Below are positions 1-17,390 of a stretch of 64,000 bases of DNA, piece after piece. The stretch is taken from the NCBI GenBank assembly GCA_045561295.1, contig JBJKYD010000016.1, positions 1 through 64,000 on the forward strand, read 5' to 3'. Position numbers and translations under genes: made by a program. The notes beneath the pieces are model-generated. The model was not told where the DNA came from and did no database searches. It was given only the letters and a program-made list of their open reading frames with translations. The stretch's first letter is position 1, and each line of letters opens with the position of its first letter. The stretch comes from Gammaproteobacteria bacterium. GTDB lineage: Bacteria > Pseudomonadota > Gammaproteobacteria > GCA-002705445 > GCA-002716945.

Positions 1-2
1 AT

Positions 3-200
3 ATTTCAGATTTTTTTTTCCTTAATCAACAAAATAATAAACTTCTAGAAGACATTCAAAAAATTACTATTAAAAACACTATTCTTGAAAATGAAATTAA
101 AGATCTATCATCATCAACTCATGCACTAGAAAACTTTGCTAGATATAATCTAGGCTTAGTCAAAAAAGATGAAACCTTTGTACAAGTTATAAAAAAATGA
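3..200 (+). CDS. ftsB: Cell division protein FtsB, 5'-partial (not in ORF track)
   Basis: Manual translation ends ALENFARYNLGLVKKDETFVQVIKK*, the FtsB C-terminal motif; its TGA overlaps the ispD ATG; canonical ftsB-ispD-ispF order. Confidence 0.85.
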   Translation: MSDFFFLNQQNNKLLEDIQKITIKNTILENEIKDLSSSTHALENFARYNLGLVKKDETFVQVIKK

Positions 201-862
201 ACAAAAATATTTCTGTTGTATTGTTAGGCGCAGGCAGTAGTAGGCGTTTTAAATCTAGCCAGATAAAACAAAATGTGATAATTAATAAAGTGAGTATTTT
301 AAATCACTCAAGATTATTCTTTAATAAATATTTCCCTGAATCAAATATATTCATAGTTTCCAATAGAAAGGTAGTTATTAATAAACTCAAAAATAATGAA
401 AATGTAATTTATGGCTCTTCTAGCCGTTTAAAATCATTACATGTAGCACTTGAGAATATATTTCAAAATAATCTCCAAACTAAATATACATTAATCCATG
501 ATGTAGCACGTCCAATTTTAAATATTGATGATATAAATAAATTAATAGCATCTATGAAATCAGATATTGATGCTTCGACATTAGGGTATCCTTTAACCAA
601 TGCTTTGAAAGATGTTAAAAATAACAAAATACTTAATAATTTATACAAAGATAAATTATGGTCTTCATTCACACCACAAATTTTTAAAACAACGAAGCTT
701 TATGAGTCAATAGTAAAAACTATCAGTAATGGATATCATATTGATGATGATATCGAAGCAATGATGATGAATGATTTCAATTGTTCCATTGTCAGATCAA
801 GTCCTGATAATATCAAAGTAACATTTTTAGAGGATATAGAGGTTATAAAGAGACTATTATGA
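197..862 (+). CDS. ispD: 2-C-methyl-D-erythritol 4-phosphate cytidylyltransferase (divergent)
   Basis: GAGSSRRF, HDVARP, TPQIF and NIKVT motifs; between ftsB and ispF. Confidence 0.9.
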   Translation: MNKNISVVLLGAGSSRRFKSSQIKQNVIINKVSILNHSRLFFNKYFPESNIFIVSNRKVVINKLKNNENVIYGSSSRLKSLHVALENIFQNNLQTKYTLIHDVARPILNIDDINKLIASMKSDIDASTLGYPLTNALKDVKNNKILNNLYKDKLWSSFTPQIFKTTKLYESIVKTISNGYHIDDDIEAMMMNDFNCSIVRSSPDNIKVTFLEDIEVIKRLL

Positions 863-1341
863 TTACTACACGGGTTGGATTTGGCTATGATATGCACAAG
901 CTAGAAGAGGGCAGTTACATCATGTTGGGCGGCATAAGAATTGATTCTAATCATACGGTAGTAGCACATTCTGACGGTGATATTGTACTGCATTCTCTCT
1001 CAGATGCCATATACGGCTCTCTTGCAGCTGGCGATATAGGTACACATTTTCCATCAAATAAAGAGAATATAAATATTCAAAGTGTAAAAATACTTAAACA
1101 TGCGTGTGAGCTGATTACTCAGTCTAATTATATGATTAATAATATTGATATAACTATAGTCATTGAGAGTCCTTTTTTACAAGACCATATTATGGATATG
1201 AGAAAAAGCATTGCTAATATTATCAGTATTGACATTAGTCAGATAAGTATAAAATCATCCACATCACAAAAAATAGGTATGATCGGTGAGCATAAAGCTG
1301 TTGCATGTTATTCGACTATTCTAATTTCAAATGAAAGATAA
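859..1341 (+). CDS. ispF: 2-C-methyl-D-erythritol 2,4-cyclodiphosphate synthase
   Basis: RVGFGYDMH, AHSDGDIVLH, GDIGTHFP. Confidence 0.97.
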   Translation: MITTRVGFGYDMHKLEEGSYIMLGGIRIDSNHTVVAHSDGDIVLHSLSDAIYGSLAAGDIGTHFPSNKENINIQSVKILKHACELITQSNYMINNIDITIVIESPFLQDHIMDMRKSIANIISIDISQISIKSSTSQKIGMIGEHKAVACYSTILISNER

Positions 1342-2386
1342 TCAAGGTTATTTAATTATTAATTTAGATACAGAGACTCTTCTTGATGAAGAAGCAGAGA
1401 TACTGAATAATAAATTTATTGGTGGCGTCTTACTTTTTGAACATAATTTTATTAATCTCGATCAAATAAAATCACTTATTGCTAATATTAAAAGTATTAA
1501 TAGTAACTTATTAATTGCAATTGATCATGAAGGAGGAAGAGTTCAAAGATTTAAAAAAGGATTTACTTCTTTACCATCTTTTAATTCTATAGGTAATATT
1601 TATGAAGAAGATCCTAATTTGGGAGAAAAAATTGCATATTATGTAGGATATATTGCAGGATATGAGCTTAAAGAAATTGGAGTTGATGTTAATTTCTCAC
1701 CAGTAGTTGACTTATCAACAAATAGTAATGTTCTAAGTTCTAGAACATTTTCAAAATCTTCGATTGATGTTGTCCGATTATCATTATCATATATAGATGG
1801 CTTAATAGATAATGGAATCATTCCTACTTTAAAACACTATCCGGGGCATGGTTGTGTTTCAGGTGACACACATACAGATCTCATGAGTTGCAAAATGTCA
1901 TGGGAAGAGATTCATAAGCATTTGATTGTTTTTGAGAAAATTTATAACAAACAAGATATTCCAATCATGACAAGCCATATACAGTTTAATAATATATCTA
2001 AAGATCCAGTTACTACTTCATCTAAATGGCTTAATGAAATCCCTAGTAAAGTATTTGGCAAGTTTCCGTTTTTTATTAGTGATGATCTAGAAATGCTTGG
2101 CATAAAGAAACATTATCCTGAATTAAGTAAACTAAGTATACTAGAAAAAACTCTCGCAGAAGGATGCTCAATGGCAATAGTAACAACCATGCAAGATAAG
2201 AAAATTATTGAAGAAAAAAGAAGTTATCTATTTTATAAAAATGAATATCTAGATAAGTTAAACTCTCATAACTTTCATCCTAGAAATATAAATTTACCAT
2301 GTTTACATGAATTAACATATAATAAGGGAGATGTGAATACATATCGAAAAGCTACTGAAGTAGTCGGAAGGCACATAAAAGAATAA
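1331..2386 (+). CDS. nagZ: Beta-N-acetylglucosaminidase (GH3)
   Basis: IDHEGGRVQR, KHYPGHG..DTH, SDDLEM. Confidence 0.92.
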   Translation: MKDNQGYLIINLDTETLLDEEAEILNNKFIGGVLLFEHNFINLDQIKSLIANIKSINSNLLIAIDHEGGRVQRFKKGFTSLPSFNSIGNIYEEDPNLGEKIAYYVGYIAGYELKEIGVDVNFSPVVDLSTNSNVLSSRTFSKSSIDVVRLSLSYIDGLIDNGIIPTLKHYPGHGCVSGDTHTDLMSCKMSWEEIHKHLIVFEKIYNKQDIPIMTSHIQFNNISKDPVTTSSKWLNEIPSKVFGKFPFFISDDLEMLGIKKHYPELSKLSILEKTLAEGCSMAIVTTMQDKKIIEEKRSYLFYKNEYLDKLNSHNFHPRNINLPCLHELTYNKGDVNTYRKATEVVGRHIKE

Positions 2387-3441
2387 TGGATATACTATTA
2401 AATAACGCACATTCCAGTCTAATAACCATTACGCTGATCACTCTATTTCTCTTTTTCATTAAGAACAAGTTAATAAATGTTATCTTTGCCTTATCTCAAA
2501 AAACTAATACCGTTTATGATGAACTAATCTTATTTTCTATAAAAACACCTTCTACTTACTTAATTATATTTGGATATATATTTGTAATTACTGATTACTT
2601 TAATAAAAATGAAGTATTAAACCTAAGTTTTAGTCTTTCATCTGCTGTATTTTCTCTAATTGTAATCGTCATTTCATGGTCATTACTTAGAGGTTTAAAC
2701 TATTACCTACAGCTCAAGCCTTTCACTAAAAATCTATCAAGTGAAGACGACATAACTTTAATTACTGAGACTTATGAAATTGTTGTAAGAATCTTAAAAA
2801 TATTGGTCGTAGTAATCACTGCTTTAATAATTATGCAAGAGATAGGTCTAAGCATATCTGGTTTACTTGCATTTGGTGGAGTTGGAGGATTAATTGTTGG
2901 CCTTGCTGCAAAAGATTTACTATCTAATTTCTTTGGTGGCATGATGATATTTTTTGATAGACCATTTAGAGTAGGTGAATTCATAAAATCTCCTGATAGG
3001 AATATTGAAGGCATAGTTGAGAAAATTGGTTGGAGACTAACCGTGGTGAGAACATTTTCTAAAAATGTTCTTTATATTCCCAATACTGCCTTTTCAAGTA
3101 TTATAGTAGAGAATGCAACCAGAATGTCTAATCGAAGAATTAATGAAACAATAGGGATACGTTATGATGATTTGAATAAAATGACAGATATAATTCAAGA
3201 CGTTAATAATATATTAGAAAGTAATCCTGATATTGATCAAACACAAAAAGCAAAAGTCTATTTCAAAAGTTTTTCAGCCTCTTCATGTGACTTTTTCATA
3301 TACGCATTTACAAAAACTAAAGATTGGGAAGAATTTCTAAGAATTAAACAAGATGTTCTGCTAAAAGTTGCTGAAATCATAGAACAGCATAATGCAGAAA
3401 TTGCATACCCAACAACAACAGTATTTATTAATAAAGATTAA
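2386..3441 (+). CDS. MscS-family mechanosensitive channel (YnaI-like)
   Basis: Multiple TM helices, GLAAKDLLSNFFGG, DRPFRVGEFI, GIVEKIGWRLT, EIAYPT. Confidence 0.92.
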   Translation: MDILLNNAHSSLITITLITLFLFFIKNKLINVIFALSQKTNTVYDELILFSIKTPSTYLIIFGYIFVITDYFNKNEVLNLSFSLSSAVFSLIVIVISWSLLRGLNYYLQLKPFTKNLSSEDDITLITETYEIVVRILKILVVVITALIIMQEIGLSISGLLAFGGVGGLIVGLAAKDLLSNFFGGMMIFFDRPFRVGEFIKSPDRNIEGIVEKIGWRLTVVRTFSKNVLYIPNTAFSSIIVENATRMSNRRINETIGIRYDDLNKMTDIIQDVNNILESNPDIDQTQKAKVYFKSFSASSCDFFIYAFTKTKDWEEFLRIKQDVLLKVAEIIEQHNAEIAYPTTTVFINKD

Positions 3442-3442
3442 T

Positions 3443-6400
3443 TTAATTAGATATCGATTCGAAAATAGTTATAACTTCGTTACAGATATCAGAAAAGCAC
3501 TTCTCTGATGGGTATTTATACTTAAAATTAAACTCATTTAAAAGAATTATGTTTCCTTTGTTAACATATTTATTTATAAGATTATCATGATTTATAAGAC
3601 TTTTTTTATTTAAAGTAATTATCGTACTTTCCTGATTTATTTTTACTTTTTCAGCATTGATTACATTTGCTGCTATTCTAATTCTCGTAAGATCAAGAAG
3701 GTTCTCTAAATATTCGGGAAGAGGGCCATAAATATCAACCAGTTTTGCTATAATTTGATTTAACTCATATTCATTATGAACATTAGATATATCACTATAA
3801 AATTCTAATCTTAAAAAAATATCTTCTATATATTCCTGAGGTATTAGTGTCGATATATAGGCATCAACTTCTACATGTTGTTTAATTTCATCAATTTTAT
3901 TATTTTTTATTTGATTAATTGCTTTAGACAACATAGATGTGTACATACCATATCCAATTTCAAGTATTTGTCCACTTTGCTCTTCTCCAAGTATTTCGCC
4001 AGCACCCCTAATATCTAGATCATGACCAGCAATGTCTAGTCCACCTCCTAAACTATCTGTTTTAATAAATGCATCTATTCTTAAATCAGCGTCCTTCGTT
4101 ACTCTTTTTCTATCAGATAATATTATACCGGCGTATGCTTGCTTATTACTTCTTCCTACTCTTCCTCTTATTTGATGAAGTTGTGATAATCCAAAATTCT
4201 GGGCATTATTAATTATTATTGTATTTACATTTGCCATATCTAAACCACTTTCTATTATACTTGTACATATCAAGATATCTATTTTCTCATTGATGAAGTT
4301 ACTCATTATCATTTCAATTTCTTTATTTGTTAGTCTTCCATGAACTTTTTCGATTTTATATTTATTATTTATTTTTTTAATAAAATTTATTTCTTCATCC
4401 ATTGTATCTATATTATTATGTACAAATAAAACTTGCCCACCTCTATTTATTTCTCTATCAATATATTGACCAATCAGCGTATCAGACCTTTCTATAATAT
4501 TAGTTACTATGTTCTTTCTACCTACAGGAGGAGTATTAATAATACTCATATCTTTTATCTCTGATAATGCTGAATTAAGAGTTCTTGGGATTGGTGTCGC
4601 AGTAAGGGATAAAACATCGATATTTTCTTTTATACCTTTTATTATTTCTTTGTGTTTAACACCAAACTTATGCTCTTCATCTATGATAAGTAAACCCAAA
4701 TCATTGTATTTTACACTTTTATTTAAAAGTGCATGAGTTCCAATTATTATTTGAGCATTACCATGTTTAATTTCTTCTAATGATGTATTTTTTTCTGATG
4801 AAGATATTACTCTCGTCATTAAATTTATTTTAAAATTATAAGTATTAAATCTATTTTTAAAAGTTTGATAATGTTGTTTTGCCAATACTGTCGTTGGAAC
4901 AATGATAACAACCTGTTTTTTATTATTTGCTGCTATAAATGAAGCCCTAAGAATTACTTCAGTTTTCCCAAAGCCAACATCACCACAAACAATACGATCC
5001 ATTGCTTTTGTAGAGCACATATCATCAATCACTTCATTAATACAATTCAGTTGATCCTCAGTCTCAACATAAGGAAATAATTTACAAAATTTCTCATAAC
5101 CATTTATATCAAAATCATACTTATAACCTCTATGCAATTCCCTTTTTGCTTGAACTAGTAGAAGTTCTGCAGCAATATCTTGTATTTTCTTTTTAGCCCT
5201 TTGTTTTATTTTTAACCATTTATCTGAACCTAAATTAGCTAATTTTGTATTTAAACCTGAATTTCCAATATACCTTTGCATCAAGGAAATTGATGTTATC
5301 GGCATATATAGATTGTTATTATCTGCATACTCTATTTTTATTAATTCTGTAGTTTTACTTTCAATGTTCATCGTAATTAGACCCCTATATTTTCCAATGC
5401 CGTGTTCTTGATGGACGACTAATTCATTTATTTTTAGATCATTTAGATTATCTATTAAGATAGTTTTTATTGATTTATTTTTTGATATTCTGGCTTTTAT
5501 TAAACCAAATAAATCATTTGAACTTATGTATACAGCTTTACTACTATTATCAATGAAGCCTTCATTTATATCACTTCTAAATATACGTATACCACTATAT
5601 TTATCATCAAGGCGGTCAATTTCTTTATATGATATATTTTTACTTTTAAAATAATTTATTATAGTTTTAAAGTTATCGTTTCTTTGTATAAAGAATGTAT
5701 AAGTATATGTTGATTCATTATAAAGATTTTCAAGATTAGTAAATGGATTCTTATAATTATAATTAATTGAAACAGAGGGTAGAGGGCTATAAGAAGATTT
5801 AATCGTGGGAACACTAGTATGAGTATTTGCTGATAAGTAAAAATAATTATTTGCTACAATTTTATTTAATGTTTTACTACTAATTATTAGATCTTCAGGT
5901 TTTAAAATATATCTATTAATAGATTCTTCTTTATAATTACTTATTAAGTTCTCTGATTCTTCTTTATATTCATTTAAAATATCATTTTCAATGAAACAGA
6001 CAAAATCTTGTCCAATTAACGACAAGAGTGAATATGTTTCATTATAAAAACTTGGCACTAAGTTCTGTATATTAATACCACTTCTATCATTAACTATAGC
6101 CTCATACTCTAGATCATCTCTATACTCATCATTAAAGTTTTTTGACACATAATCCTTATACTTTTCAATATTATTAGAATCCAGATAATACAAACCTCTT
6201 GATCCAAGAGCAGTAGAGTCTAAATCAGCATCTGATAGCTGTGTAATTGTACTAAAATATTTTAATGTCTCAATTTCATCACCAAAGAAATTAATTCTTA
6301 CCGGCTTATCTGCTAAAGTTGAAAAGAAATCAATAATTGATCCTGATAACCTGTATTGACCACGTTCATCAACTTTGGTTACTTTTTTGTATTCATATTT

Positions 6401-6814
6401 TTTTAGTAAATTTAATATTTCTATATATTTGGAATTTTTTGAAATTGAACACCATGATTTACTAGCTTCCTCAATAGATGGTGTTTTACTAAAAATTGAT
6501 TTATAAGTCCCTATAATAATTTTGTTAGAATCACTATCATCTTTTATATGTATCAAACAGTTTAATCTTTCTTTTATTACATCTTGATCAATCGATGTTG
6601 AACTATAATTTGCTACTCCATAATTAGGAAACTTTAATATTACTTTATCATTATAAATATTCTTCAATTCATCAAATAAACTATCTACCTGGTGATTATT
6701 ATCCACAAGGACAACAACATATTTATGATGCTTTGCTAAATTTTCTATTTCTAATAGATATGATGAACCAGAAAGGTTACTTACTAAATTGATACCTTTT
6801 GACAGAATCTTCAT
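3443..6814 (-). CDS. mfd: Transcription-repair coupling factor
   Basis: VVHQEHGIGKY, CGDVGFGKTEV, DEEH, TATPIPRT, QIRGRVGR, GEEQSG; start moved to ATG 6814 because the longer track start lies inside a terminator hairpin. Confidence 0.96.
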   Translation of the reverse strand: MKILSKGINLVSNLSGSSYLLEIENLAKHHKYVVVLVDNNHQVDSLFDELKNIYNDKVILKFPNYGVANYSSTSIDQDVIKERLNCLIHIKDDSDSNKIIIGTYKSIFSKTPSIEEASKSWCSISKNSKYIEILNLLKKYEYKKVTKVDERGQYRLSGSIIDFFSTLADKPVRINFFGDEIETLKYFSTITQLSDADLDSTALGSRGLYYLDSNNIEKYKDYVSKNFNDEYRDDLEYEAIVNDRSGINIQNLVPSFYNETYSLLSLIGQDFVCFIENDILNEYKEESENLISNYKEESINRYILKPEDLIISSKTLNKIVANNYFYLSANTHTSVPTIKSSYSPLPSVSINYNYKNPFTNLENLYNESTYTYTFFIQRNDNFKTIINYFKSKNISYKEIDRLDDKYSGIRIFRSDINEGFIDNSSKAVYISSNDLFGLIKARISKNKSIKTILIDNLNDLKINELVVHQEHGIGKYRGLITMNIESKTTELIKIEYADNNNLYMPITSISLMQRYIGNSGLNTKLANLGSDKWLKIKQRAKKKIQDIAAELLLVQAKRELHRGYKYDFDINGYEKFCKLFPYVETEDQLNCINEVIDDMCSTKAMDRIVCGDVGFGKTEVILRASFIAANNKKQVVIIVPTTVLAKQHYQTFKNRFNTYNFKINLMTRVISSSEKNTSLEEIKHGNAQIIIGTHALLNKSVKYNDLGLLIIDEEHKFGVKHKEIIKGIKENIDVLSLTATPIPRTLNSALSEIKDMSIINTPPVGRKNIVTNIIERSDTLIGQYIDREINRGGQVLFVHNNIDTMDEEINFIKKINNKYKIEKVHGRLTNKEIEMIMSNFINEKIDILICTSIIESGLDMANVNTIIINNAQNFGLSQLHQIRGRVGRSNKQAYAGIILSDRKRVTKDADLRIDAFIKTDSLGGGLDIAGHDLDIRGAGEILGEEQSGQILEIGYGMYTSMLSKAINQIKNNKIDEIKQHVEVDAYISTLIPQEYIEDIFLRLEFYSDISNVHNEYELNQIIAKLVDIYGPLPEYLENLLDLTRIRIAANVINAEKVKINQESTIITLNKKSLINHDNLINKYVNKGNIILLNEFNFKYKYPSEKCFSDICNEVITIFESISN

Positions 6815-6823
6815 AAAATACTC

Positions 6824-6858
6824 AAAAAAAAGCAGCACATGTATTTATGTGCTGCTTT
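6824..6858 (-). terminator. Intrinsic terminator of the microprotein-rhodanese cassette
   Basis: AAAGCAGCACAT(6829-6840)-GTATTT-ATGTGCTGCTTT(6847-6858) perfect stem; A8 at 6824-6831 gives a U-tract on the minus strand. Confidence 0.88.
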
Positions 6859-6877
6859 GTAATAATTATAAGCTTAT

Positions 6878-7555
6878 TTATTTAACAGTATTGAATCCTA
6901 GGTTTTCCCAGTTTTGCATACCGCCACGATACCATTTAATTTTGTCAGCTGGATATCCGTATTTTAATAAACTCTTAATGTTATTTGGTGATTGACCGCA
7001 CCACATACCATTACAAAACAATACTAGCGTTTTTGCTTTATCAAAATAAAATAAGCCATTTTGTTCTTCAGCGCCAAACTTTGTTGTCATTATCTCTGCG
7101 ATTGACAATGGGTCAGCCCCTTTTCTCTCGCTCAAAAGTGTCCAAGGTAGGTTCACTGCTCCAGGAATTGTTCCTTTAGCAACCCAATCGGGTGTTCTTG
7201 AATCAATCACCATAATTTCTGAGCCATCAGGCATTTTTTCACCTTTTGACATCATTACTGCATAATGAATGATTTCTTGTTCACCGATTGTCTCTATCCC
7301 CGGTCTTAACTGCATAGGTTGAATGCAGAATGGTGGACATGGTCTAGACGTTTTAGCAAACGCTGGATTTACAGTTGCAGCATTATCTTGATTTCTCATT
7401 ATCTTATGTTCACCAACTGAAACAGATAACCCAATTTCTAAAGAATTTGGTCCATCTGCTTTAGATATAGCAACAGGTTTACCTGCAATAGCAGATAGCG
7501 ACACTAAGGCTAAAGAAAAAATAGCAACTGAAAAAAAGTTATTAATTTTTAACAT
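6878..7555 (-). CDS. Secreted single-domain rhodanese/sulfurtransferase, SoxL-like
   Basis: Signal peptide ending AIA; RPCPPFCIQP, IDSRTPDW, TIPGAVNLPW, FCNGMWCGQS, WYRGGMQNW; GGAGG SD precedes ATG 7555. Confidence 0.85.
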   Translation of the reverse strand: MLKINNFFSVAIFSLALVSLSAIAGKPVAISKADGPNSLEIGLSVSVGEHKIMRNQDNAATVNPAFAKTSRPCPPFCIQPMQLRPGIETIGEQEIIHYAVMMSKGEKMPDGSEIMVIDSRTPDWVAKGTIPGAVNLPWTLLSERKGADPLSIAEIMTTKFGAEEQNGLFYFDKAKTLVLFCNGMWCGQSPNNIKSLLKYGYPADKIKWYRGGMQNWENLGFNTVK

Positions 7556-7571
7556 ATCTCCTCCCAATTAA

Positions 7572-7727
7572 TTATTCGCAATCTGGTTCCTCATCATCAG
7601 TAGGCTTTCCTTCGCCTTCTTTGTCAGCAAAAATTATTTTAACTTCTGAAATAGTCTTACTGAAAGACGGTTGAGATACTGAAATAGCCATTAGAGCAAG
7701 CATCAGTACTATCAAATTTATCCTCAT
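7572..7727 (-). CDS. Unannotated 51-aa secreted microprotein with acidic C-terminal EEPDCE motif
   Basis: MRINLIVLMLALMAISVSQPSFSKTISEVKIIFADKEGEGKPTDDEEPDCE*; AAGGAG SD at 7734-7739; fills the gap upstream of the rhodanese, whose SD follows the stop. Confidence 0.8.
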   Translation of the reverse strand: MRINLIVLMLALMAISVSQPSFSKTISEVKIIFADKEGEGKPTDDEEPDCE

Positions 7728-7768
7728 TTTTGTCTCCTTGATTAAAAGAACTAATTGTTACAAGCAGT

Positions 7769-7798
7769 ATTATAATATCTAACTCACAGATTTGACAT
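7769..7798 (-). promoter_or_regulatory. Putative sigma70 promoter of the microprotein-rhodanese cassette
   Basis: Minus-strand TATAAT at 7769-7774 with ATGTCA (4/6 match to TTGACA) 18 nt upstream. Confidence 0.45.
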
Positions 7799-7823
7799 GT
7801 TTATTTAATATATATCGGCAGAT

Positions 7824-8678
7824 TTAGCCAATATCCTGAAAATTCCACATTTTTTTTATAGAAATTTGGTCTTTTTTATAGAATCTATATTTGATTATGC
7901 CCTGCTTTAATTTACATCTTTTGAGTGATGTACCATGTGCATCAGTGATAAAACTAGATCCCCAAAACTTAATAGAGCTATCTTTTTGCTGCTCTGTACC
8001 TATTCGATTTGCAACTACAATTGGTATATTGTTCATCAGACTATTAGCTTCAATTACATTAATCCATTTCTTTTTTTCATTAGCTATTTGTATTTTTTCG
8101 TTTTTATAAAAACAAGTTCCAATTGCTGTTGGGCAAATAATCAAATTTACATCCTTTTTCTTCAATTCAAGGTATGCACTAGAATGCCATTGATCCCAAC
8201 AGATTAAAATTCCAATTTTAAAAACACCTATCGAAAAGAACTGATATCCATTATTTGATTTATTAAAATAATAACTTTCTTCATAACATATTTCTGATGG
8301 TATATTTTTCTTATGATATTTTTTAATAATATTTCCTTCAGGATTAATAATTAGGGCAGTATTAAAGTATTTTTTTTTCAACTTTTCAAATATTGTAATG
8401 CATAAAAAAATTCTATATTTTATAGCAATATTTTTAATTAGAGAAATCTCCTCAGAATCTAAAGATATTGCATTGCTAATATTTTTTTTTGTTTTTGTGA
8501 TACACACATAACGCTGCAGTGATAACTCAGGACAGACTACAAGAGTATTTTCATTGACATTATTTTTTTTAAGTAGTAATTCAATTTTACTTATATTGTC
8601 ACTAACATTATCTAGAGGTTGATACTGAAGAAGTATTAGATTTATATATTCATGCTTAGACAATGCAGCCCTCCACAT
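7824..8678 (-). CDS. aguB: N-carbamoylputrescine amidase (carbon-nitrogen hydrolase family)
   Basis: E-K-C triad motifs PEL, YHKKNIP, LICWDQW; PTAIG, ANRIG, FWGSSF; downstream of agmatine deiminase; true start may be ATA at 8645. Confidence 0.8.
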   Translation of the reverse strand: MWRAALSKHEYINLILLQYQPLDNVSDNISKIELLLKKNNVNENTLVVCPELSLQRYVCITKTKKNISNAISLDSEEISLIKNIAIKYRIFLCITIFEKLKKKYFNTALIINPEGNIIKKYHKKNIPSEICYEESYYFNKSNNGYQFFSIGVFKIGILICWDQWHSSAYLELKKKDVNLIICPTAIGTCFYKNEKIQIANEKKKWINVIEANSLMNNIPIVVANRIGTEQQKDSSIKFWGSSFITDAHGTSLKRCKLKQGIIKYRFYKKDQISIKKMWNFQDIG

Positions 8679-9640
8679 TCGATAAGTGATGCCTCACAAT
8701 TTATATTATATTTTATTTTTCTAATTGGTAAGTCATTAAGGCTATCAATGATAGATATATCATTATTTGTTATTGATGGAAAGATTATACAATTAGATGT
8801 GATGATAAAGTTCAATTTTGAATAAGGGTAATACTTATTATCATTATACAGCGTATCTCTATCATCATGAAATATTGGATAAATATCCTTTATTATTTTA
8901 CTTTTCTTTTTAATTGATTCTAATTGATTTTTCAGTTCTTTTGCTAAATCATAATTTACATAAGATTTATCAGTAGATGCAAGGTAAACTAAATTTTCAT
9001 CATCAATAAACCTTACCATATTATCGACATGTCCATTGGTATCATCACCTTTAATAGAGTCTAGTTCTAATACAAATAATTCATTAAATGGTATTTCCTT
9101 TTTTAAGAACATAAGTTTATCTATAATATTTTTTCCTGAGTATTTATGATTATTTTTTATGAAACTATTTTTATTTGTTATTACAACACCTTTTGATGAA
9201 AACTCTAAATTTCCTCCCTCAATCACATAACCTTTTAAATCAAAGTCACTATCATACATATCTAGTGAATATTTATAATTATTGTCATTTATGTACATAT
9301 ACTTTTCACCATAACCATTAAAGTCAAAATCTATTTTCTTTAGACCTTTTCTCGTTGAATATAGTTTTGGATGATAGTCTCTAATCCAAATATCATCACA
9401 GTTGTATTGAATAAATTCTATATTTGGACTCAAATCACGAAAAAAACTATCTTCATTGTCGTATATTTCTGGAATGATAACACTTTGATGAACATTATTT
9501 TGAGATAAAATAATTGATAATTCTAAGTATATTTTTTTGATATCTTCAAAATAAAAAAACCGATCATGCATAGCTGGATAAACCATAACAATATGATTTG
9601 AATTATAGTCAGCTAATAATTTATTATGTATCTTTTCCAT
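8642..9640 (-). CDS. aguA: Agmatine deiminase family protein
   Basis: DIWIRDY, EGGNL, DDTNGHVD and the C-terminal catalytic GGLHC. Confidence 0.88.
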   Translation of the reverse strand: MEKIHNKLLADYNSNHIVMVYPAMHDRFFYFEDIKKIYLELSIILSQNNVHQSVIIPEIYDNEDSFFRDLSPNIEFIQYNCDDIWIRDYHPKLYSTRKGLKKIDFDFNGYGEKYMYINDNNYKYSLDMYDSDFDLKGYVIEGGNLEFSSKGVVITNKNSFIKNNHKYSGKNIIDKLMFLKKEIPFNELFVLELDSIKGDDTNGHVDNMVRFIDDENLVYLASTDKSYVNYDLAKELKNQLESIKKKSKIIKDIYPIFHDDRDTLYNDNKYYPYSKLNFIITSNCIIFPSITNNDISIIDSLNDLPIRKIKYNINCEASLIECGGLHCLSMNI

Positions 9641-9670
9641 ATTATCGCTTATATTTGATATAGTGTAGCT

Positions 9671-10855
9671 ATGAATTTCCTTGTTGCATATCGATTTTTA
9701 TTTTCAAAATATAATCTATCATTTATATCTGTAATATCAAAAATATCGATTATAGGTTTAATGTTAGGTGTTGGAATTCTTATCACTGTTCTTTCTGTTA
9801 TGAATGGATTTGAAAAAGAGCTTAGAGATAAAATCTTAGGCTTCACATCACACATAAACATATATCCACATGATCAGCATACTGTAGATGATCTTAAGTC
9901 AATCATTAAGACAAATAAAAATATATTAGCTTACTCATTTATAAACAGAAATGAAGAATTAGTTTCATCAGATTCTGTAAATAACTACCCGATCATTATG
10001 CATAACGTAACAAGCAAAGATGAATTATTAACTAGCAACATAGCTCAAATGATACAATTAGGAGACTTTAATTTGGAAAACCCAAACAATATTGTAATAG
10101 GTAATGTTTTAGCAAATACTTTGAACATTACTATAGGTGATCAGATTACAGTATCAAACTATAAAAAAACATATATAAGTAATAAATTTATTGTAAGTGG
10201 AATTTTTGATTCAGGTATAAATGAATATAATCAAAGATTTATTTATGGAAGCAATTTAAATCTTCATAGTACTGATCAATTTTCATATATAAAATTGAAA
10301 CTAATAGATCCGCTGAAAGCTTCTTTAATTTCGAGAGAATTGTTTAATTCATATTCATTAATAACAAGTAACTGGACAGAAACACATAATGCTCTTTTTC
10401 AAGCTATAAACAATGAAAAAAGAGTAATGTTTATAATACTCAGTCTTATAATAGCTATTGCATCATTTAATATTGTTTCATCATTAACCCTTCTTGTTAT
10501 GAATAAACAAAAAGACATTGCAATATTAACTTCTTTGGGAATCAACAAAAAAACAATCGAATCGATATTTTTAATTCAAGGTTTTATTATTGGTGTAGCT
10601 GGTATTACACTTGGTGTCTTGCTTGGTCTAGTACTATCAATTAATATTAATGCAATAGTCTTATTTATAGAATCACTGTTTAATGTTGCCTTAATTTCAC
10701 CTGACATTTACCATTTAGATAAAGTCCCATATATAATAATCGTATCAGATATATATAAAATTGTGATTATCGCTTTTTTAATGGTCTTAGTGTCATCTAT
10801 ATACCCAGCAAGAAAAGCATCAAAACTAATACCTGCCCAATCTTTAAATTCATGA
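9671..10855 (+). CDS. lolC: Lipoprotein-releasing ABC transporter permease (single LolC/E)
   Basis: ITVLSVMNGFEKELRDKILG, IASFNIVSSL, IYPARKA; followed by lolD. Confidence 0.9.
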   Translation: MNFLVAYRFLFSKYNLSFISVISKISIIGLMLGVGILITVLSVMNGFEKELRDKILGFTSHINIYPHDQHTVDDLKSIIKTNKNILAYSFINRNEELVSSDSVNNYPIIMHNVTSKDELLTSNIAQMIQLGDFNLENPNNIVIGNVLANTLNITIGDQITVSNYKKTYISNKFIVSGIFDSGINEYNQRFIYGSNLNLHSTDQFSYIKLKLIDPLKASLISRELFNSYSLITSNWTETHNALFQAINNEKRVMFIILSLIIAIASFNIVSSLTLLVMNKQKDIAILTSLGINKKTIESIFLIQGFIIGVAGITLGVLLGLVLSININAIVLFIESLFNVALISPDIYHLDKVPYIIIVSDIYKIVIIAFLMVLVSSIYPARKASKLIPAQSLNS

Positions 10856-11523
10856 AAATTACTTGTAATAATATTTGTAAATCTTTTCAGAACAACACTA
10901 CGACACTGAACAGAGATGTGCTACGAGGTATTTCATTTGATTTAGAATCTGGAGATTCGCTCTCTATATCTGGCCCTTCCGGATCTGGAAAATCTACACT
11001 ATTAAATATCATATCAGGCCTAGATGATGCTGATAGGGGAGATATATATTTTGATAATTTATGTTTTTCAAATTTAAAAACCAATGAAAAGACAAAATTT
11101 AGATTACAAAATATTTCTTTAGTATTTCAATCATTTAATTTATTAAAGGACTTTAATGTATTGGAGAATATTATGCTACCACTTAGTTATAAAGGATTGT
11201 CAAAAAAAGATTCTGAAAAACATGCACTATCAGCTTTAGATGATGTAGATTTATCTAATTGTAAATCGTCATCAGTAACTACTTTGTCAGGTGGTGAGGC
11301 ACAAAGGGTAGGAATTGCTAGAGCATTAGCAATGAATACTAAAATTATTTTAGCTGATGAGCCTACTGGAAATCTTGATAAAGACACATCTAATTCTATT
11401 GTAAATAGTCTAGTTGAAGTATGCAAAATGAATAAAGTTTCTTTAGTGGTAGTCTCACATGATGATTCTGTTCTTTCTAAACTGAATATAAATAAAAAAA
11501 TAATGGATGGAAAATTTATTTAG
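10852..11523 (+). CDS. lolD: Lipoprotein-releasing ABC transporter ATPase
   Basis: GPSGSGKST, LSGGEAQRV, LADEPTGNLD. Confidence 0.9.
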   Translation: MKITCNNICKSFQNNTTTLNRDVLRGISFDLESGDSLSISGPSGSGKSTLLNIISGLDDADRGDIYFDNLCFSNLKTNEKTKFRLQNISLVFQSFNLLKDFNVLENIMLPLSYKGLSKKDSEKHALSALDDVDLSNCKSSSVTTLSGGEAQRVGIARALAMNTKIILADEPTGNLDKDTSNSIVNSLVEVCKMNKVSLVVVSHDDSVLSKLNINKKIMDGKFI

Positions 11524-12028
11524 TATTGTTTTTAATCCTATGAAGTTTTCTATAAGCTAGTATTTTCCAGAAAAGATGTATTCCAAAAAAACCTATTACT
11601 GCAGAAGAAATTCCAATAATCATAGTACCTACCAGCAGCGGTTCCCATATCAGAGAGAAAACACCTATAATCCAACCGATACTTGCCTCAAACTTATCAA
11701 ATAGTGGATCTATACCAAGTATGACATTACCAAATTCATATCCTAGATACATCATGGGTGGCATTGTTATTGGATTACTTACCCATACTCCTGCAACTGA
11801 TAAAGGAAGATTTGCTCGAAAATATACTGCGCAAAATGCTGCAGGTATCATTTGAAAAAACATTGGCATCCACCCCCAGAAAAGCCCTATAGCAATAGCT
11901 CTTGATAGTGTATGTTTATTTATAGACCAAAGTTCCTTTTCAAATATTGAGTTCCCTAAGACACCCAAAGCCTTATATTTCTTTAGATCTTCTGGTTTTG
12001 GTAAGTTGTCTTTAAAAAACTTCTTCAT
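11516..12028 (-). CDS. DUF2062-family membrane protein
   Basis: AIAIGLFWGWMP..Q, RANLP, WVSNPITMPP; usual neighbour of lolCD/msbA. Confidence 0.8.
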   Translation of the reverse strand: MKKFFKDNLPKPEDLKKYKALGVLGNSIFEKELWSINKHTLSRAIAIGLFWGWMPMFFQMIPAAFCAVYFRANLPLSVAGVWVSNPITMPPMMYLGYEFGNVILGIDPLFDKFEASIGWIIGVFSLIWEPLLVGTMIIGISSAVIGFFGIHLFWKILAYRKLHRIKNNTK

Positions 12029-12127
12029 TATTTCGAACTATATATGAAAATAATTGTATGTATATTTCAATGGTTAAATAATATCATGTATGATAGTCAA
12101 ATATCTTCATATCTTAATAAAACAATA

Positions 12128-13873
12128 ATGAATCATTCTAACAATAGTGGATTTCTTTTATATAAAAGGCTATTAAAACGCACAAAAATCTATAAGACTG
12201 TTTTTATTCTTGCTGTAATTGGAATGATAATACACGCTATTGCTGACACCTCTTTTGCAGCTCTTATTAAACCATTATTGGATGGAAGTTTCATAGAACA
12301 GGACAAGGCAGTCATATCATTAATGCCCATATTAATAATACTTATTTTTATACTCAGAGGCATTGGATCATTTATATCTAACTATGGCATGGCTTATGTT
12401 GGAAGAAGCATAATACGTGATATAAGAAAAGATATGTTTGACAAAATTATATCAAAGTCATCACAATCTTATGATGAATCTATTACTGGAAGACTTGTAT
12501 CAAAAATTACTTTTGATGCAGAGCAAGTAGCTGAAGCTGCGACTAAAGCAATAACAGTATTAATAAAAGATGGCTTAACTATAATCGGTTTATTATCATT
12601 AATGTTTTATTATAGTTTTGAACTTTCAATTGGACTCATTTTGTTAGCACCATTCATTGGATATTTTCTAAAAATCATGAGTATAAAATTTAGAAGCATA
12701 AGTCGTGACATTCAAAAATCAATGGGTGAAATTACTAATGTTGTAGAAGAATCAATTATCGGTCATCGACTTGTAAAGATATTTGAAGGACACAAGTATG
12801 AAACAAATTTATTTGATAGTGTTAATAAAAACAATAGAGAGAGAAACTTAAAGCTAATTTTTATACAAAGTTTAAGTATTCCACTAATGCAGCTTGTCAT
12901 AGCAATTTTTGCTGCAAGCATAATTTATTTCGTTATGTCAGAGGATTATCTTGAGCAAATATCAATAGGGACTTTCATGTCTTATCTCACTGCAATGATA
13001 ATGTTATTTGCTCCTATAAAAAGATTATCTGAGGTTAACGTTACTTTACAAAGGGGCATAGCTGCTAGTGAATCAATTTTTACTTTACTTGATTCAAAAT
13101 CAGAGCCTCAAGGAAATCAAACTTATGAGCCTATTGATAATGTTACTATTGATTTCACAGATATTAACTTTAAGTATTCATCGTCCAAGAACTTTATTGT
13201 TAAAAATATAACTCTTTCAATAAAGCCTGGGGAAACTGTTGCGTTAGTAGGTAAATCAGGTAGTGGAAAAACTACTATATTGGATTTAATTCCTAGATTA
13301 TATGAGCCAACTTCTGGATCAATCAAGTTTAATGATAAAGATATAGCAAAGATGGATTTAAATTTTATACGGAAACAAATCTCATATGTAGGTCAAGATT
13401 TTACTTTATTCAATGATACTATTTACAATAATATTGCTTATGGAGAATTAAATAAATGTAGCAAAGCTGAAGTTGAAGATGCAGCAAAAAAAGCAAATGC
13501 ATATAGTTTCATTGAGCTCTTGCAAGATAAATTTAATACATTTGTAGGTCAAAATGGAGTTCTTTTATCAGGTGGGCAAAGACAGAGAATTGCTATAGCA
13601 AGGGCTGTCCTGAAAAATTCTCCTATCCTTTTGTTAGATGAGGCTACAAGCGCATTAGATTCAGAATCGGAAACTATTATTAAAGAGTCTATTAATAATC
13701 TATCTAAAAATAAAACAACTTTAATTATCGCACATAGACTTTCAACAGTTATCAATGCTGATAAGATAGTAGTAATTGATAATGGGCAAATTGTTGAACA
13801 AGGTAATCATGATGAATTACTTAAAAAAAGAGGTACATATTCTGTTCTATATCATTCACAATTTAATAACTAG
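12128..13873 (+). CDS. msbA: Lipid A export ABC transporter
   Basis: TMD plus NBD (GKSGSGKT, LSGGQRQRIAIARA, DEATSALD); upstream of lpxK; start placed at ATG 12128. Confidence 0.95.
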   Translation: MNHSNNSGFLLYKRLLKRTKIYKTVFILAVIGMIIHAIADTSFAALIKPLLDGSFIEQDKAVISLMPILIILIFILRGIGSFISNYGMAYVGRSIIRDIRKDMFDKIISKSSQSYDESITGRLVSKITFDAEQVAEAATKAITVLIKDGLTIIGLLSLMFYYSFELSIGLILLAPFIGYFLKIMSIKFRSISRDIQKSMGEITNVVEESIIGHRLVKIFEGHKYETNLFDSVNKNNRERNLKLIFIQSLSIPLMQLVIAIFAASIIYFVMSEDYLEQISIGTFMSYLTAMIMLFAPIKRLSEVNVTLQRGIAASESIFTLLDSKSEPQGNQTYEPIDNVTIDFTDINFKYSSSKNFIVKNITLSIKPGETVALVGKSGSGKTTILDLIPRLYEPTSGSIKFNDKDIAKMDLNFIRKQISYVGQDFTLFNDTIYNNIAYGELNKCSKAEVEDAAKKANAYSFIELLQDKFNTFVGQNGVLLSGGQRQRIAIARAVLKNSPILLLDEATSALDSESETIIKESINNLSKNKTTLIIAHRLSTVINADKIVVIDNGQIVEQGNHDELLKKRGTYSVLYHSQFNN

Positions 13874-14824
13874 ATGCGTTACTTAGTATTTTTTATTTGG
13901 TATAGGTTACCGAAAATATTTCTTATACCATTATTACCATTATCATTAATATATTTTATAACCATTCTTATAAGAAAATATTTCTTAACAAATATTCTAT
14001 CTCGATATACCTCTCCAATAAATTTAATTATTGTTGGTAATTTAAATATCGGTGGATCCGGAAAAACTCCTTTTACTTTATGGCTTGCTAATTATTTATA
14101 TACTAAAGAAAAAAAAATAGGGATTATTTCTTCTGGTTATAAATCAAATGTAACTATACCAAAGCAAATAAACTCTACTTCAAAAGCTAATGAGGTTGGA
14201 GATGAAGCGTTGTTGCTACATTCAAAGACCGAAGCCGTTGTAGTATCTAGCGATAATCGTGTTAATTCAACTAAATTTTTAGATAATAAAAACTTAGACT
14301 ACATAATTCATGATGATGGTTTGCAGCATTATCAATTAAACAGAAATTATGAATTTATTATTACTAAATATAAAAGCTCTAGCAACAAACTATTACTGCC
14401 TTGCGGGCCTTTACGTGAACCTAAATTTTTTCATCCTAATGCTACTTTCGTGTTTAGCAACTACCACGGTGAGATGTATCCTGGGTTTTATACAAAATTA
14501 TCTCAAATAAGATCTCCTTATGACAGTCAAGTATACCTTCCGAATGATAGTAGATTTTCAAAAAGCTACTTACTTACTGCCATAGCTGATGATACTAATC
14601 TTAAAGAAGAACTGAGAGGATATCATGCTGATATAATTTGTTCATCCTTCATTGATCACCATCAATTTATACTCTCAGATATTCCTGATACTGCAGAGCC
14701 TATATTGGTCACAGAGAAGGATTTCACTAAACTAAAAGAATTTAAAGTTAAAAATATTTATATACTTGAACAATCTCTTGTTCCAAATGATAAACTAACT
14801 AAAATTATAGAGAATTTTAGATGA
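13874..14824 (+). CDS. lpxK: Tetraacyldisaccharide 4'-kinase
   Basis: VGNLNIGGSGKTP, GDEA, DDGLQHY, LLPCGPLRE, VTEKD. Confidence 0.93.
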   Translation: MRYLVFFIWYRLPKIFLIPLLPLSLIYFITILIRKYFLTNILSRYTSPINLIIVGNLNIGGSGKTPFTLWLANYLYTKEKKIGIISSGYKSNVTIPKQINSTSKANEVGDEALLLHSKTEAVVVSSDNRVNSTKFLDNKNLDYIIHDDGLQHYQLNRNYEFIITKYKSSSNKLLLPCGPLREPKFFHPNATFVFSNYHGEMYPGFYTKLSQIRSPYDSQVYLPNDSRFSKSYLLTAIADDTNLKEELRGYHADIICSSFIDHHQFILSDIPDTAEPILVTEKDFTKLKEFKVKNIYILEQSLVPNDKLTKIIENFR

Positions 14825-15540
14825 CTACATTCATTATATTACCTGCAAGATTAGAGTCATCACGACTATCAAAAAAACTTATTCAAAATATAGGAGATAA
14901 AGCCTTAATAGAGCACATGATTTTGTGTGCAAAAAAAATAAAGGATACATCTATAATCGTATCAACAGACTCGAAGATTATCCAAAAATATGCTGATAAG
15001 CATAATGTAAAATCTCTCTTGTCGTCAAAAAAATTTAAAAATGGCTCAGAGCGCTGTTATTTTACTGCAAAAAAATTTAAAGCTTCAAATAAAGATATAA
15101 TCATCAATCTCCAGGCAGATGAATTTAACATTGATCCAAATAATATTAGAAAACTTATAAGAGTTTTAAAACTCTCTGATGATATTAATGTTTGTACATT
15201 AATTTATGAAACAGAAAATAAGAATGAATACTTAGATAGTAATTTTGTAAAGGCAGTTGTTGATAAACAACTCAGAGCCATTACATTCACAAGAAAACCT
15301 ATTACGTCAGTTGAATCGAAGTATCTCATTCATCTTGGAGTATATGGTTATAAATTTAAAACTCTCGAAAAATATTCTTCACTTAAGCAATGTCATTATG
15401 AAAAAGATGAGAGTCTTGAACAATTAAGAATGATTTGGAATAATATACCGATACATTGTGTTCAGGTTAAAGATAACAAGTCAATTGGTATCAACTCCGT
15501 TCGCGATCTGAAAAAGGCAAGAGATATTTATGAGCATTAA
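14821..15540 (+). CDS. kdsB: CMP-Kdo synthetase
   Basis: PARLESSRL, NGSER, INLQADE, HLGVYGY, ESLEQLR. Confidence 0.93.
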   Translation: MTTFIILPARLESSRLSKKLIQNIGDKALIEHMILCAKKIKDTSIIVSTDSKIIQKYADKHNVKSLLSSKKFKNGSERCYFTAKKFKASNKDIIINLQADEFNIDPNNIRKLIRVLKLSDDINVCTLIYETENKNEYLDSNFVKAVVDKQLRAITFTRKPITSVESKYLIHLGVYGYKFKTLEKYSSLKQCHYEKDESLEQLRMIWNNIPIHCVQVKDNKSIGINSVRDLKKARDIYEH

Positions 15541-16495: not shown

Positions 16496-17390
16496 GAATT
16501 ACTTCAACAATATCTTTTCCTACGAATAATTCATTAAAATCACAGCTATCTCTTAGTATACTGTGTGACAATGTAACGTCATTATAGAAAAAGTACTCTC
16601 CAATTAATTCGCCAACACTCTCACCATCTTTATTGATAATGTTTCTGTCATGAATTTCAGAATTATTTATATTAACCAGATAGACATGTTTTTTTACATT
16701 ACCAAGATAATGCGTTCGTGCAACAACTTCTTGTCCAGTATAGCAGCCTTTTTTATAGCTGACTGTATTGAGTCTATCGGCGTTCAATACTTGCGGAATA
16801 TATTTTTCAATACTTTCAACTTGTAATCTTGTTACTAAACCAAACAAATCAATCAAACATGTATTAGGTTTATCTTTCTCAGAACAATTTATTTCAATCT
16901 GATGCCCAGGGTTCATCAAGACGCACTTACTCTGAGGAATTAGTGGAGTTGACATATTTATTACAATATTATTATCATCAATTTTTTTATAATGTCCTGA
17001 TGAGAGTACATTATATTTTTTATTGATTGACAATGCTTCATCACCAAGTATTGACAAGACAGCTGCTCCAGAAACAATATCAAATTTTACCTTCGACATT
17101 AAGATATACTTTGAAATTTTTTCAATAAAATATTCAGATAAGTTCTTTGGCAAGATTATAATTACATCATCACCATCTGCAATCAATTGCATGTTTACTA
17201 TTACTTTTCCTTGGTGAGTACAATAAGATGCGAGTTTGTATTGTTCATTCCCCAAACTATCAATGTCATTGGTTAATTGACCTTGTAGGAATTTTTTGTT
17301 GTCAATACCGCTTACTCTTATAACTGAAACACCATTGTCACTGTAAGGACCATTGTGCTCTCTTATAATATCAGATATTAGTTTATTCAT
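16476..17390 (-). CDS. ygfZ: Folate-binding Fe-S maturation protein YgfZ
   Basis: KFLQGQLTND and the signature KGCYTGQE. Confidence 0.93.
   Translation of the reverse strand: MNKLISDIIREHNGPYSDNGVSVIRVSGIDNKKFLQGQLTNDIDSLGNEQYKLASYCTHQGKVIVNMQLIADGDDVIIILPKNLSEYFIEKISKYILMSKVKFDIVSGAAVLSILGDEALSINKKYNVLSSGHYKKIDDNNIVINMSTPLIPQSKCVLMNPGHQIEINCSEKDKPNTCLIDLFGLVTRLQVESIEKYIPQVLNADRLNTVSYKKGCYTGQEVVARTHYLGNVKKHVYLVNINNSEIHDRNIINKDGESVGELIGEYFFYNDVTLSHSILRDSCDFNELFVGKDIVEVIPMEDIV

Follow-up and report, generated by a model that had tools for sequence, protein, structure and literature searches.

A small predicted-secreted Cys-tail peptide gene paired with a SoxL-family rhodanese gene in sulfur-oxidising Gammaproteobacteria

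We analysed a 64,000-nucleotide stretch of DNA from a Gammaproteobacteria bacterium (positions 1 to 64,000 of contig JBJKYD010000016.1, assembly GCA_045561295.1; the window in what follows), in which two genes stand in tandem on the minus strand with aguB and mfd on either side. The first is a 51-codon open reading frame (ORF) for a small, acidic, predicted-secreted protein with a cysteine next to its C-terminus; the second is a 225-codon ORF for a predicted-periplasmic rhodanese. Along the minus strand the pair is laid out as a promoter-like site, the Shine-Dalgarno (SD) sequence AAGGAG, the small ORF, a spacer of 16 nt, the rhodanese ORF, and a hairpin followed by a T run (Table 1). What is new here is the family of Cys-tail peptides and its pairing with SoxL, the rhodanese of truncated Sox systems; the SoxL enzyme family itself is already known.

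An earlier note on this DNA, written from its letters, had described the pair as a self-contained cassette and a candidate periplasmic sulfur relay. All the features that it read in the sequence are there: the 51-aa ORF with its AAGGAG, a signal-like N-terminus and a sole, penultimate Cys, and then, after a gap of 16 nt with the SD GGGAGGAG, a signal-peptide rhodanese with CPPFC and CNGMWC, corroborated by a PF00581 match. That the small ORF had been missed was correct for the reader's own ORF track, but public gene callers predict exactly this protein, in records that are unnamed or read 'hypothetical protein'. The view of the pair as an unrecognised two-gene module stands insofar as the peptide is undescribed and the pair conserved, and falls insofar as the rhodanese belongs to the known SoxL family.

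The DNA signals around the pair fared unevenly. The TATAAT with which the note had credited the pair is there, 18 nt from an ATGTCA, but shuffled versions of this AT-rich DNA yield promoter-like matches at least as often (133.5 expected against 120 found), which leaves the ends of RNA contigs as the main support for a promoter here. The intrinsic terminator, by contrast with the promoter, holds up well: its 12-bp stem and T run fold at -18 kcal/mol (z -3.3), and it is the strongest of seven terminator-like sites in a scan of bases 1-20000. The pair is also richer in GC than its surroundings, as the note had said (0.34-0.39 over 6850-7749 against 0.20-0.30 in the flanks). Horizontal transfer of a foreign cassette was considered as the source of this difference and rejected, because the order aguB-peptide-rhodanese-mfd is conserved across the host's family and beyond; mfd lies downstream in 25 of 74 loci.

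Table 1. Features of the peptide-rhodanese pair, in window coordinates
Feature	Position	Strand	Basis
Promoter-like site ATGTCA-18 nt-TATAAT (-10 at 7774-7769)	7769..7798	minus	10/12 consensus matches; not above chance
Shine-Dalgarno AAGGAG of small ORF	7734..7739	minus	6 nt ahead of ATG; read from sequence
Gene of 51-aa predicted-secreted acidic Cys-tail protein	7572..7727, including stop	minus	ATG start, TAA stop; conservation
Predicted Sec signal peptide of the 51-aa protein, residues 1-23 (MR, hydrophobic core, cut between SFS and K)	7659..7727	minus	inspection and relatives
C-terminal tail EEPDCE, Cys at residue 50	7575..7592	minus	family alignment
Spacer of 16 nt between the two ORFs, with GGGAGGAG as the rhodanese SD	7556..7571	minus	sequence
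SoxL-family predicted-periplasmic rhodanese gene, 225 aa, ATG at 7555	6878..7555, including stop	minus	Pfam and motifs
Predicted signal peptide of the rhodanese, residues 1-24 (MLKINNFFSVAIFSLALVSLSAIA, then GKP; cut ...SAIA/GKP)	7484..7555	minus	inspection and alignment
CPPFC in the N-terminal extension, residues 73-77	7325..7339	minus	63-sequence alignment
Rhodanese domain PF00581, residues 107-218	6902..7237	minus	Pfam profile
Active-site loop CNGMWC, residues 181-186, second Cys at +5	6998..7015	minus	63-sequence alignment
Intrinsic terminator, 12-bp stem (6858-6829), 6-nt loop, T run	6821..6858	minus	terminator scan and folding

The small ORF encodes MRINLIVLMLALMAISVSQPSFSKTISEVKIIFADKEGEGKPTDDEEPDCE, 51 residues with a sole Cys in the penultimate position. 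We judged signal peptides by eye and with a hydrophobicity script. Features of Sec export and signal peptidase I (SPase I) cleavage are seen by eye in both products, with SFS ahead of K in the peptide and AIA ahead of G in the rhodanese, and again in their aligned relatives; in all 57 aligned members of the peptide family a hydrophobic core comes after an initial basic residue, and the mean core hydrophobicity is 2.87 in 147 peptide representatives. Export and cleavage, as these features predict them, would leave a mature peptide of about 28 residues that is strongly acidic and probably intrinsically disordered.

Searching 1.84 billion representatives with a peptide profile recovered 370 clusters at E<=0.001. 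The family has a common architecture: a signal peptide, a variable linker rich in E, D, K and G, and a C-terminal E-P-[D/E]-C-[D/E]. The C-terminus EP[DE]C[DE]? occurs in 145 of the top 150 clusters. Among the 147 representatives, 145 end in Cys plus one acidic residue, and in these the Pro at -4 and the Cys at -2 are invariant (145/145 each) and the Glu at -5 nearly so (144/145). The profile was built from 57 members chosen for a Cys within the last three residues, so the invariance of Cys in that alignment is partly circular; Pro and Glu(-5) were not selected for. The near-terminal Cys, set in a tail of the form EEEP[D/E]C[D/E], is the best-conserved residue of the peptide. A word-based search with the single peptide returned 48 close relatives only and underestimates the family.

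The DNA beneath this tail varies while the tail does not: 21 genomic matches use all four Pro codons and both Cys codons, and such synonymous change under a fixed tail argues that selection acts on the peptide. It is this conservation, and not the length of the ORF, that sets the small ORF apart from chance. The same data bear on the idea that the ORF yields no functional product and is a translated leader that regulates or couples translation of the rhodanese. A leader role would suit an ORF that ends 16 nt before the rhodanese start codon and shares RNA contigs with that gene, but the signal peptide and C-terminal residues are conserved as protein across orders through synonymous codon change, and the peptide gene also occurs unlinked and before a different gene family (described below). 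We therefore disfavour this explanation and give it almost no weight.

The peptide is undescribed within the family libraries and literature that we searched. The window peptide matches no Pfam or NCBIfam family at E<=1, and the 57 family members give only scattered weak matches at E<=0.1, SoxY not among them. A literature search for EEPDCE, EEPDCD, EEPECD, EEEPDC and EEEPEC returned no relevant paper and three unrelated matches. The ESM Atlas holds only unnamed 'hypothetical protein' clusters, without structure. Among 7998 candidates of 148-2000 aa we found no fused or longer form of the peptide at E<=0.001, which is weak evidence.

Composition and neighbourhood allow two further functions for so small an exported protein to be weighed. 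Mature peptides in the 147 representatives have a median net charge of -9 with one or more Cys, so that the acidic Cys tail might chelate Cu, Zn, Fe, Cd or Hg, as a chaperone, as a buffer, or for delivery to the four-cysteine rhodanese, whose CxxxC and CxxxxC could, judging by their spacing, bind metal as well. Yet mature peptides are not enriched in His or Met, the 25 commonest neighbour clusters of 74 loci include no metal transporter, metallochaperone or metal-sensor family (a 'Cu-oxidase_4' neighbour match is the yfiH gene of the rluD-yfiH-clpB block), and metal binding leaves the tight link to Sox/Dsr genomes and DsrE-like genes unexplained; we consider it improbable. Alternatively, the small size, the secretory leader, and a variable middle ahead of a conserved C-terminal core could mark the precursor of an exported signalling or antimicrobial peptide, cleaved or modified possibly with help from the rhodanese. 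Here the leader is of the Sec type and not that of a ribosomally synthesised and post-translationally modified peptide (RiPP); the conserved neighbours include no radical-SAM, YcaO, lanthipeptide, peptidase-transporter or receptor-kinase genes; and the pair sits in housekeeping synteny (aguB ... mfd) in a streamlined 1-Mb genome, all of which makes such a precursor more improbable still.

We assign the window rhodanese to the SoxL family on the strength of its domain, its motifs and its relatives in sox clusters. The PF00581 match (E 5.8e-13) scores 49.6 bits against a cut-off of 22.2. In an alignment of 63 rhodaneses, C73, P75, F76 and C77 of CPPFC and C181, N182, G183, W185 and C186 of the active-site loop are invariant, and CPPFC is kept in proteins in the SoxL position of sox operons. 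We take C181, the first Cys of CNGMWC, to be the catalytic Cys, from the usual position of the rhodanese loop; in the predicted structure LFCNGMWCGQS follows the strand 176-181, which places this Cys at the start of the active-site loop. The AlphaFold2 (AF2) model has a confident core and a mean pLDDT of 70. Foldseek matched it to generic rhodanese folds only (best E 6.7e-3, none at E<=0.001), and a sequence search of PDB chains gave nothing better than E 0.11. The profile TIGR03865, for rhodanese-like proteins with CXXCW associated with pyrroloquinoline quinone (PQQ), scores 28.8 bits against a cut-off of 128.05 and covers residues 171-223 only.

The rhodanese family is large: 7942 of 8000 scored candidates match at E<=0.001, with 57-70% identity across gammaproteobacterial orders, and 26 of 41 Chromatiaceae genomes have members. 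Among 16 Chromatiaceae regions, three read soxB<->soxX-soxA-gap-rhodanese and two soxX-soxA-rhodanese-soxY-soxZ-soxB, and proteins in the position following soxX-soxA match the rhodanese profile at E of about 1e-73 to 1e-76. The window rhodanese has 40-46% identity to these soxX-soxA-following proteins and has CPPFC, DSRTPDW, FCNGxWC and K[IL]KWYRGGMQ in common with them; tblastn gives 40-44% in loci L103, L108 and L112. In Allochromatium vinosum, soxB is divergent from a run of soxX, soxA, soxK and soxL, and SoxL is proposed to replace SoxCD by taking sulfane sulfur off SoxY (PMC3368242, PMC5573963). Because the gene order around the first three of these relatives matches this layout, and the window rhodanese has the motifs and 40-46% identity in common with the relatives, it is filed in the SoxL family by way of them. 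The window gene lies outside the sox cluster of its host, where soxXYZA is on contig C14 and soxB on C5. SoxL reportedly speeds SoxYZ recycling or thiosulfate consumption in vitro, in work attributed to Welte et al. in 2009.

How firmly the peptide gene is tied to the rhodanese gene was asked in both directions. A scan of one genome per species gave 575 stretches that encode a relative of the rhodanese, of which the best 80 loci were kept. In each of the 12 loci from the host's genus and family, the small ORF stands ahead of the rhodanese gene on its strand, and an ORF ending E[PST][DE]C[DE]?-stop lies just upstream, always on the same strand, in 51 of the 80. Under a looser rule, and with L031 counted, the peptide is directly upstream in 59 of the 80 loci, three carry ambiguous variants (L054, L073, L091) and 18 are without it, L074 among them lying at a contig end. 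For the reciprocal test we searched an evenly drawn set of 401 genomes of the class with a 21-nt DNA pattern for EEP[DE]C[DE]-stop, the reversed pattern serving as control, and found 21 matches in 17 genomes against 2 for the control. Fifteen of the 21 stand directly upstream of a rhodanese, two immediately precede a DsrE-family gene that encodes a signal peptide and has no rhodanese gene next to it, one is cut by a contig end, and three have no obvious downstream partner. Conservation of the small ORF and its terminal Cys beside homologous rhodaneses, one of the conditions on which the earlier note had made its proposal depend, was borne out.

In the rhodanese tree, peptide-linked members occur throughout; the loci without a peptide fall into a few clades, and the sox-cluster clade arises from within peptide-linked ones (support 100/99). 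A profile search gave no peptide in five genomes without an adjacent copy, but this was a false negative: a DNA pattern found peptide genes in four of the five. The profile is insensitive in genome searches and missed G013 and G018, both peptide carriers. An 18-nt pattern, run on 15 genomes with a peptide-less locus, placed the peptide elsewhere in eight (the control gave one match): four Arenicellales with an unlinked copy and four with the peptide before a second rhodanese paralogue. In the other seven the pattern gave no peptide, and these include all three sox-cluster genomes examined. One pattern match (L121) is not a signal-peptide ORF and was counted as chance. Lost adjacency is often not loss of the peptide, and the canonical sox-operon SoxL seems to do without it.

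Two observations concern particular members of this set. The Arenicellales chromosomes (L119, L120, L122, L123) carry an unlinked peptide subfamily with an added conserved stretch, ...DP[ESD]IAA...EEEPDCE, and no second Cys; in two genomes it is about 28-33 kb away from the rhodanese and no gene on its strand follows directly downstream. Metagenome-assembled genomes (MAGs) labelled 'Halobacteria archaeon' and 'Parasphingorhabdus' (L022, L023, L057, L047) hold a typical gammaproteobacterial cassette; the neighbours on those contigs are gammaproteobacterial too (aguA, aguB, DAHP synthase, mfd), and the labels probably reflect mis-binning or mislabelling rather than transfer.

The DsrE-family partners of the two peptide genes without a rhodanese match PF02635 at 29.9 and 24.8 bits (cut-off 22.7). 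In 11 loci a predicted-periplasmic DsrE-like gene also follows the rhodanese gene at a distance of one to three genes, four further loci read peptide-rhodanese-thioredoxin-like-DsrE-like, and one Cys is kept in all 13 DsrE-like partners that were aligned. Two unrelated sulfurtransferase families neighbour the peptide, the SoxL-type rhodanese and DsrE-like proteins. The four-gene variant (L124-L127) is a periplasmic operon of Cys-tail peptide, SoxL-type rhodanese, thioredoxin-like protein with CxxC and DsrE-like protein; L020 has the same order by cluster labels, and L027 has no DsrE-like gene among its neighbours.

RNA contigs that cover the pair come from seawater. Eighteen seawater metatranscriptome runs contain most of the cassette stretch, and in four runs from four studies contigs run between 6848-6899 and 7732-7753, which takes in everything between the terminator hairpin and a point slightly short of the TATAAT. 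Three RNA contigs bridge both ORFs. In two studies the terminator stem itself holds a contig end, at 6848 and 6852, and in two runs adapter sequence follows directly at 7739 and 7744. Both genes are covered by RNA contigs, which is supportive, although not decisive, evidence that the cassette is transcribed; from contigs neither a single transcript nor a ranking of expression can be established. In one run (X5, 7567-7753) the word depth is about 3600-4200 on short contigs over the small ORF and 343 on the contig over the rhodanese gene, roughly a tenfold difference; a stable 5' fragment, attenuation or mixed strains might account for the gap, and contig depth was not used as evidence. Nor was the near absence of RNA contigs over the flanking mfd and aguB, as uncovered parts cannot rank genes.

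The host genome is streamlined (~1.03 Mb, 92% complete). Its soxX, soxY (ending GGCGG), soxZ and soxA share a contig, where the genes of TusA and of a YeeE/YedE-type sulfur transporter flank them; soxB is on a separate contig and dsrAB is present; soxC was not found in the genome at its 92% completeness. The host thus has SoxXA, SoxYZ and SoxB without SoxCD, the mark of truncated Sox. Across the class the rhodanese family is found in 80 of 400 scored genomes at E<=1e-30 and DsrA in 124 of 401; in the sample of 401, the two occur together in 57 genomes, the rhodanese without DsrA in 23, DsrA without the rhodanese in 67 and neither in 254. The 19 peptide-bearing genomes, which span 15 families and include relatives that are not independent, have the rhodanese in 19 of 19, SoxB in 18, DsrA in 17 (against the baseline of 124/401) and SoxC in 2. 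Hosts of the peptide are of one metabolic type, sulfur oxidisers with truncated Sox plus reverse Dsr (rDsr). Taken as a unit, then, the pair is conserved, covered jointly by RNA contigs and found in sulfur oxidisers; it is not obligate, the peptide being also unlinked or linked to DsrE-like genes.

The host soxB (contig C5:2814-4540, L095) appears as a pair of ORFs (508 and 67 aa), the stops falling around profile position 493-497. The relatives G013 and G018 have a single 575-aa ORF; a frameshift, an assembly error or a broken gene could be the cause. In four of the 80 loci the order is soxY-soxZ-soxA-(~125-aa lipoprotein)-rhodanese-soxB, with no peptide. Lipoprotein-like genes without a Pfam match follow soxA both in sox-cluster loci (~120-137 aa; L062:3585-3947) and in the host (166 aa; C14:35445-35945, L102:3946-4446), where they occupy the position of A. 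vinosum soxK.

A few observations concern other genes near the pair or in the window. The listed mfd ORF starts at a GTG at 6838, inside the terminator hairpin, and the ATG at 6814-6812 (MKILSKG...) is the likelier start; since this ATG is only about 10 nt past the terminator T run, mfd may need read-through or a promoter within the cassette. A second rhodanese gene in the window (39473-40261, plus strand) is a single 284-aa ORF with two PF00581 matches. Ten loci encode a secreted family of about 97 aa without a Pfam match (...GEPPI[ST]EW.Y..FRVYFE...VLHS...; for example L070:3172-3465). In 8 of them its gene immediately precedes that of the peptide or rhodanese, as a rule with lolC on its other side; loci with this family include L044, L065, L070, L076, L082, L088, L089 and L092.

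We propose that the peptide accepts sulfane sulfur from SoxL as a persulfide or polysulfide and passes it on, as a carrier or partner of SoxL, and we put the probability of this at about 0.5. In the host, thiosulfate would be oxidised by SoxXAYZB without SoxCD, and cytoplasmic reverse Dsr would complete the oxidation of sulfur. After SoxB has acted, sulfane sulfur would remain on the Cys of SoxY, from which SoxL would take it. The tail Cys of the peptide might then receive the sulfur from SoxL in the form of a persulfide or a short polysulfide, the acidic tail perhaps being attracted into the basic surroundings of the rhodanese active site. So loaded, the peptide could keep zero-valent sulfur soluble and mobile in the periplasm until it is passed to a further acceptor, which may be an importer in the inner membrane or, in some genomes, a DsrE-like protein of the periplasm.

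Several findings weigh against this proposal. SoxL-family rhodaneses occur without a neighbouring peptide, sox-operon clades included, and since three genomes of those clades and four further genomes gave no motif, the peptide would be an accessory and not a requirement. Conversely, three to seven peptide genes have no adjoining sulfurtransferase gene. No rhodanese residue tracks loss of the peptide: of the columns conserved at >=85% in the 59 peptide-linked rhodaneses, only P85 and M102 change, in two of four peptide-less groups, and neither is basic, so that no interface signal is seen. The N-terminal part of the rhodanese, with CPPFC, is of low confidence in the AF2 model (pLDDT 39-65). Kinship among the genomes makes the counts exceed the number of independent observations. 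Finally, the near-terminal Cys is joined by a second one in the mature part of most members (two Cys in 105 of 147 representatives, one in 34, three in 2 and five in 6), and thioredoxin-like periplasmic proteins often neighbour the pair: TlpA-like genes in 13 loci, and other CxxC thioredoxin-like genes inside the peptide-rhodanese-Trx-DsrE operons.

With a second Cys, a thiol-disulfide role fits as well as a polysulfide bridge. The peptide would then be a periplasmic redox buffer or cap that passes no sulfane sulfur on: it might protect the active-site Cys of SoxL, or SoxY, through a mixed disulfide from over-oxidation or from DsbA in oxic seawater, or resolve disulfides or trisulfides between SoxL's paired cysteines. 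Besides the two Cys of most mature peptides, the two invariant Cys pairs of the rhodanese (CPPFC and CNGxWC) and the thioredoxin-fold neighbours are consistent with such chemistry. The host peptide, however, has a single Cys, as do the 34 representatives already counted; the window cassette encodes no partner that would regenerate a reductant; and pairing with DsrE-family proteins, which have a persulfide-relay fold, together with restriction to Sox/rDsr genomes favours sulfur transfer over plain redox. We regard the thiol-disulfide role as the main but less likely rival, with about one chance in five, of the sulfur-accepting role proposed above.

A bolder form of the sulfur-accepting proposal would make the peptide the long-sought soluble vehicle by which marine sulfur oxidisers without sulfur globules move zero-valent sulfur, and this we hold to be doubtful, somewhat more so than the thiol-disulfide role. 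SoxL would strip sulfane sulfur from SoxY and load it onto the peptide, where it would form either a persulfide or a polysulfide bridge, the latter within one peptide, from Cys to Cys, or linking two peptides; the loaded peptide would deliver to the YeeE/YedE-type transporter and TusA encoded beside the host sox genes; and the delivered sulfur would feed the cytoplasmic reverse-Dsr pathway.

The interest of a carrier lies in the sulfur that truncated Sox leaves behind. Sox without SoxCD leaves one sulfur atom per thiosulfate on SoxY, which must be removed and then stored or imported for reverse Dsr, and the receiver of sulfur after SoxL and its route have no identified gene product. Passages on this gap describe transfer between periplasmic Sox and cytoplasmic Dsr as unstudied and suggest only low-molecular-weight persulfides as sulfur vehicles (PMC10892978). 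The peptide is a concrete candidate: about 28-60 residues long and synthesisable, it is represented by 370 unnamed clusters, occurs in many seawater metatranscriptomes and is co-assembled with SoxL on RNA contigs, and it could be a marker gene for this kind of marine sulfur oxidation. Were it indeed the vehicle, a genetically encoded unfolded peptide would be a new class of sulfur carrier that closes the gap between Sox and Dsr; were it merely a redox cap or metal binder, it would still represent a large undescribed family of secreted small proteins.

Among known systems, Sud of Wolinella succinogenes is a periplasmic single-domain rhodanese-type protein that binds polysulfide sulfur and hands it to a membrane enzyme. 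It binds the sulfur itself, with no peptide partner, and serves sulfur respiration, not Sox-type oxidation. DsrC carries its reactive Cys on a flexible C-terminal arm. SoxY, the presumed substrate of SoxL, is periplasmic and likewise holds sulfur on a Cys near the C-terminus of a mobile arm, the host SoxY ending ...GGCGG. It differs in being a folded domain of about 110 residues (PF13501) that requires SoxZ, whereas the peptide is acidic, of low complexity and without a Pfam or NCBIfam match; its tail is GGCGG where that of the peptide is EP[DE]C[DE], and the host's true SoxY and SoxZ are encoded elsewhere. The likeness of the peptide to SoxY and DsrC is thus an analogy of design and not membership of either family.

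The cytoplasmic persulfide relay Rhd-TusA-DsrE2 / DsrEFH-DsrC, with its folded carriers, is outlined in PMC5573963 and PMC10892978. It resembles the present system in combining a rhodanese, a DsrE-family protein and a small Cys-bearing carrier. That relay is cytoplasmic, whereas here all parts have predicted signal peptides and the candidate carrier would be unfolded and is unrelated in sequence.

Closest of all is SoxL of truncated Sox (A. vinosum Alvin_2171, D3RVS9). The window rhodanese has a predicted signal peptide like it and is of the same length class; CPPFC, DSRTPDW, FCNGxWC and K[IL]KWYRGGMQ unite it with the Chromatiaceae copies in sox position, and its host has SoxXAYZB without SoxCD, plus rDsr. 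The SoxL literature, in the titles and passages available, makes no mention of a peptide partner, and canonical sox-operon copies have no peptide gene. Unlike them, the window gene sits between aguB and mfd, with the gene of a Cys-tail peptide upstream.

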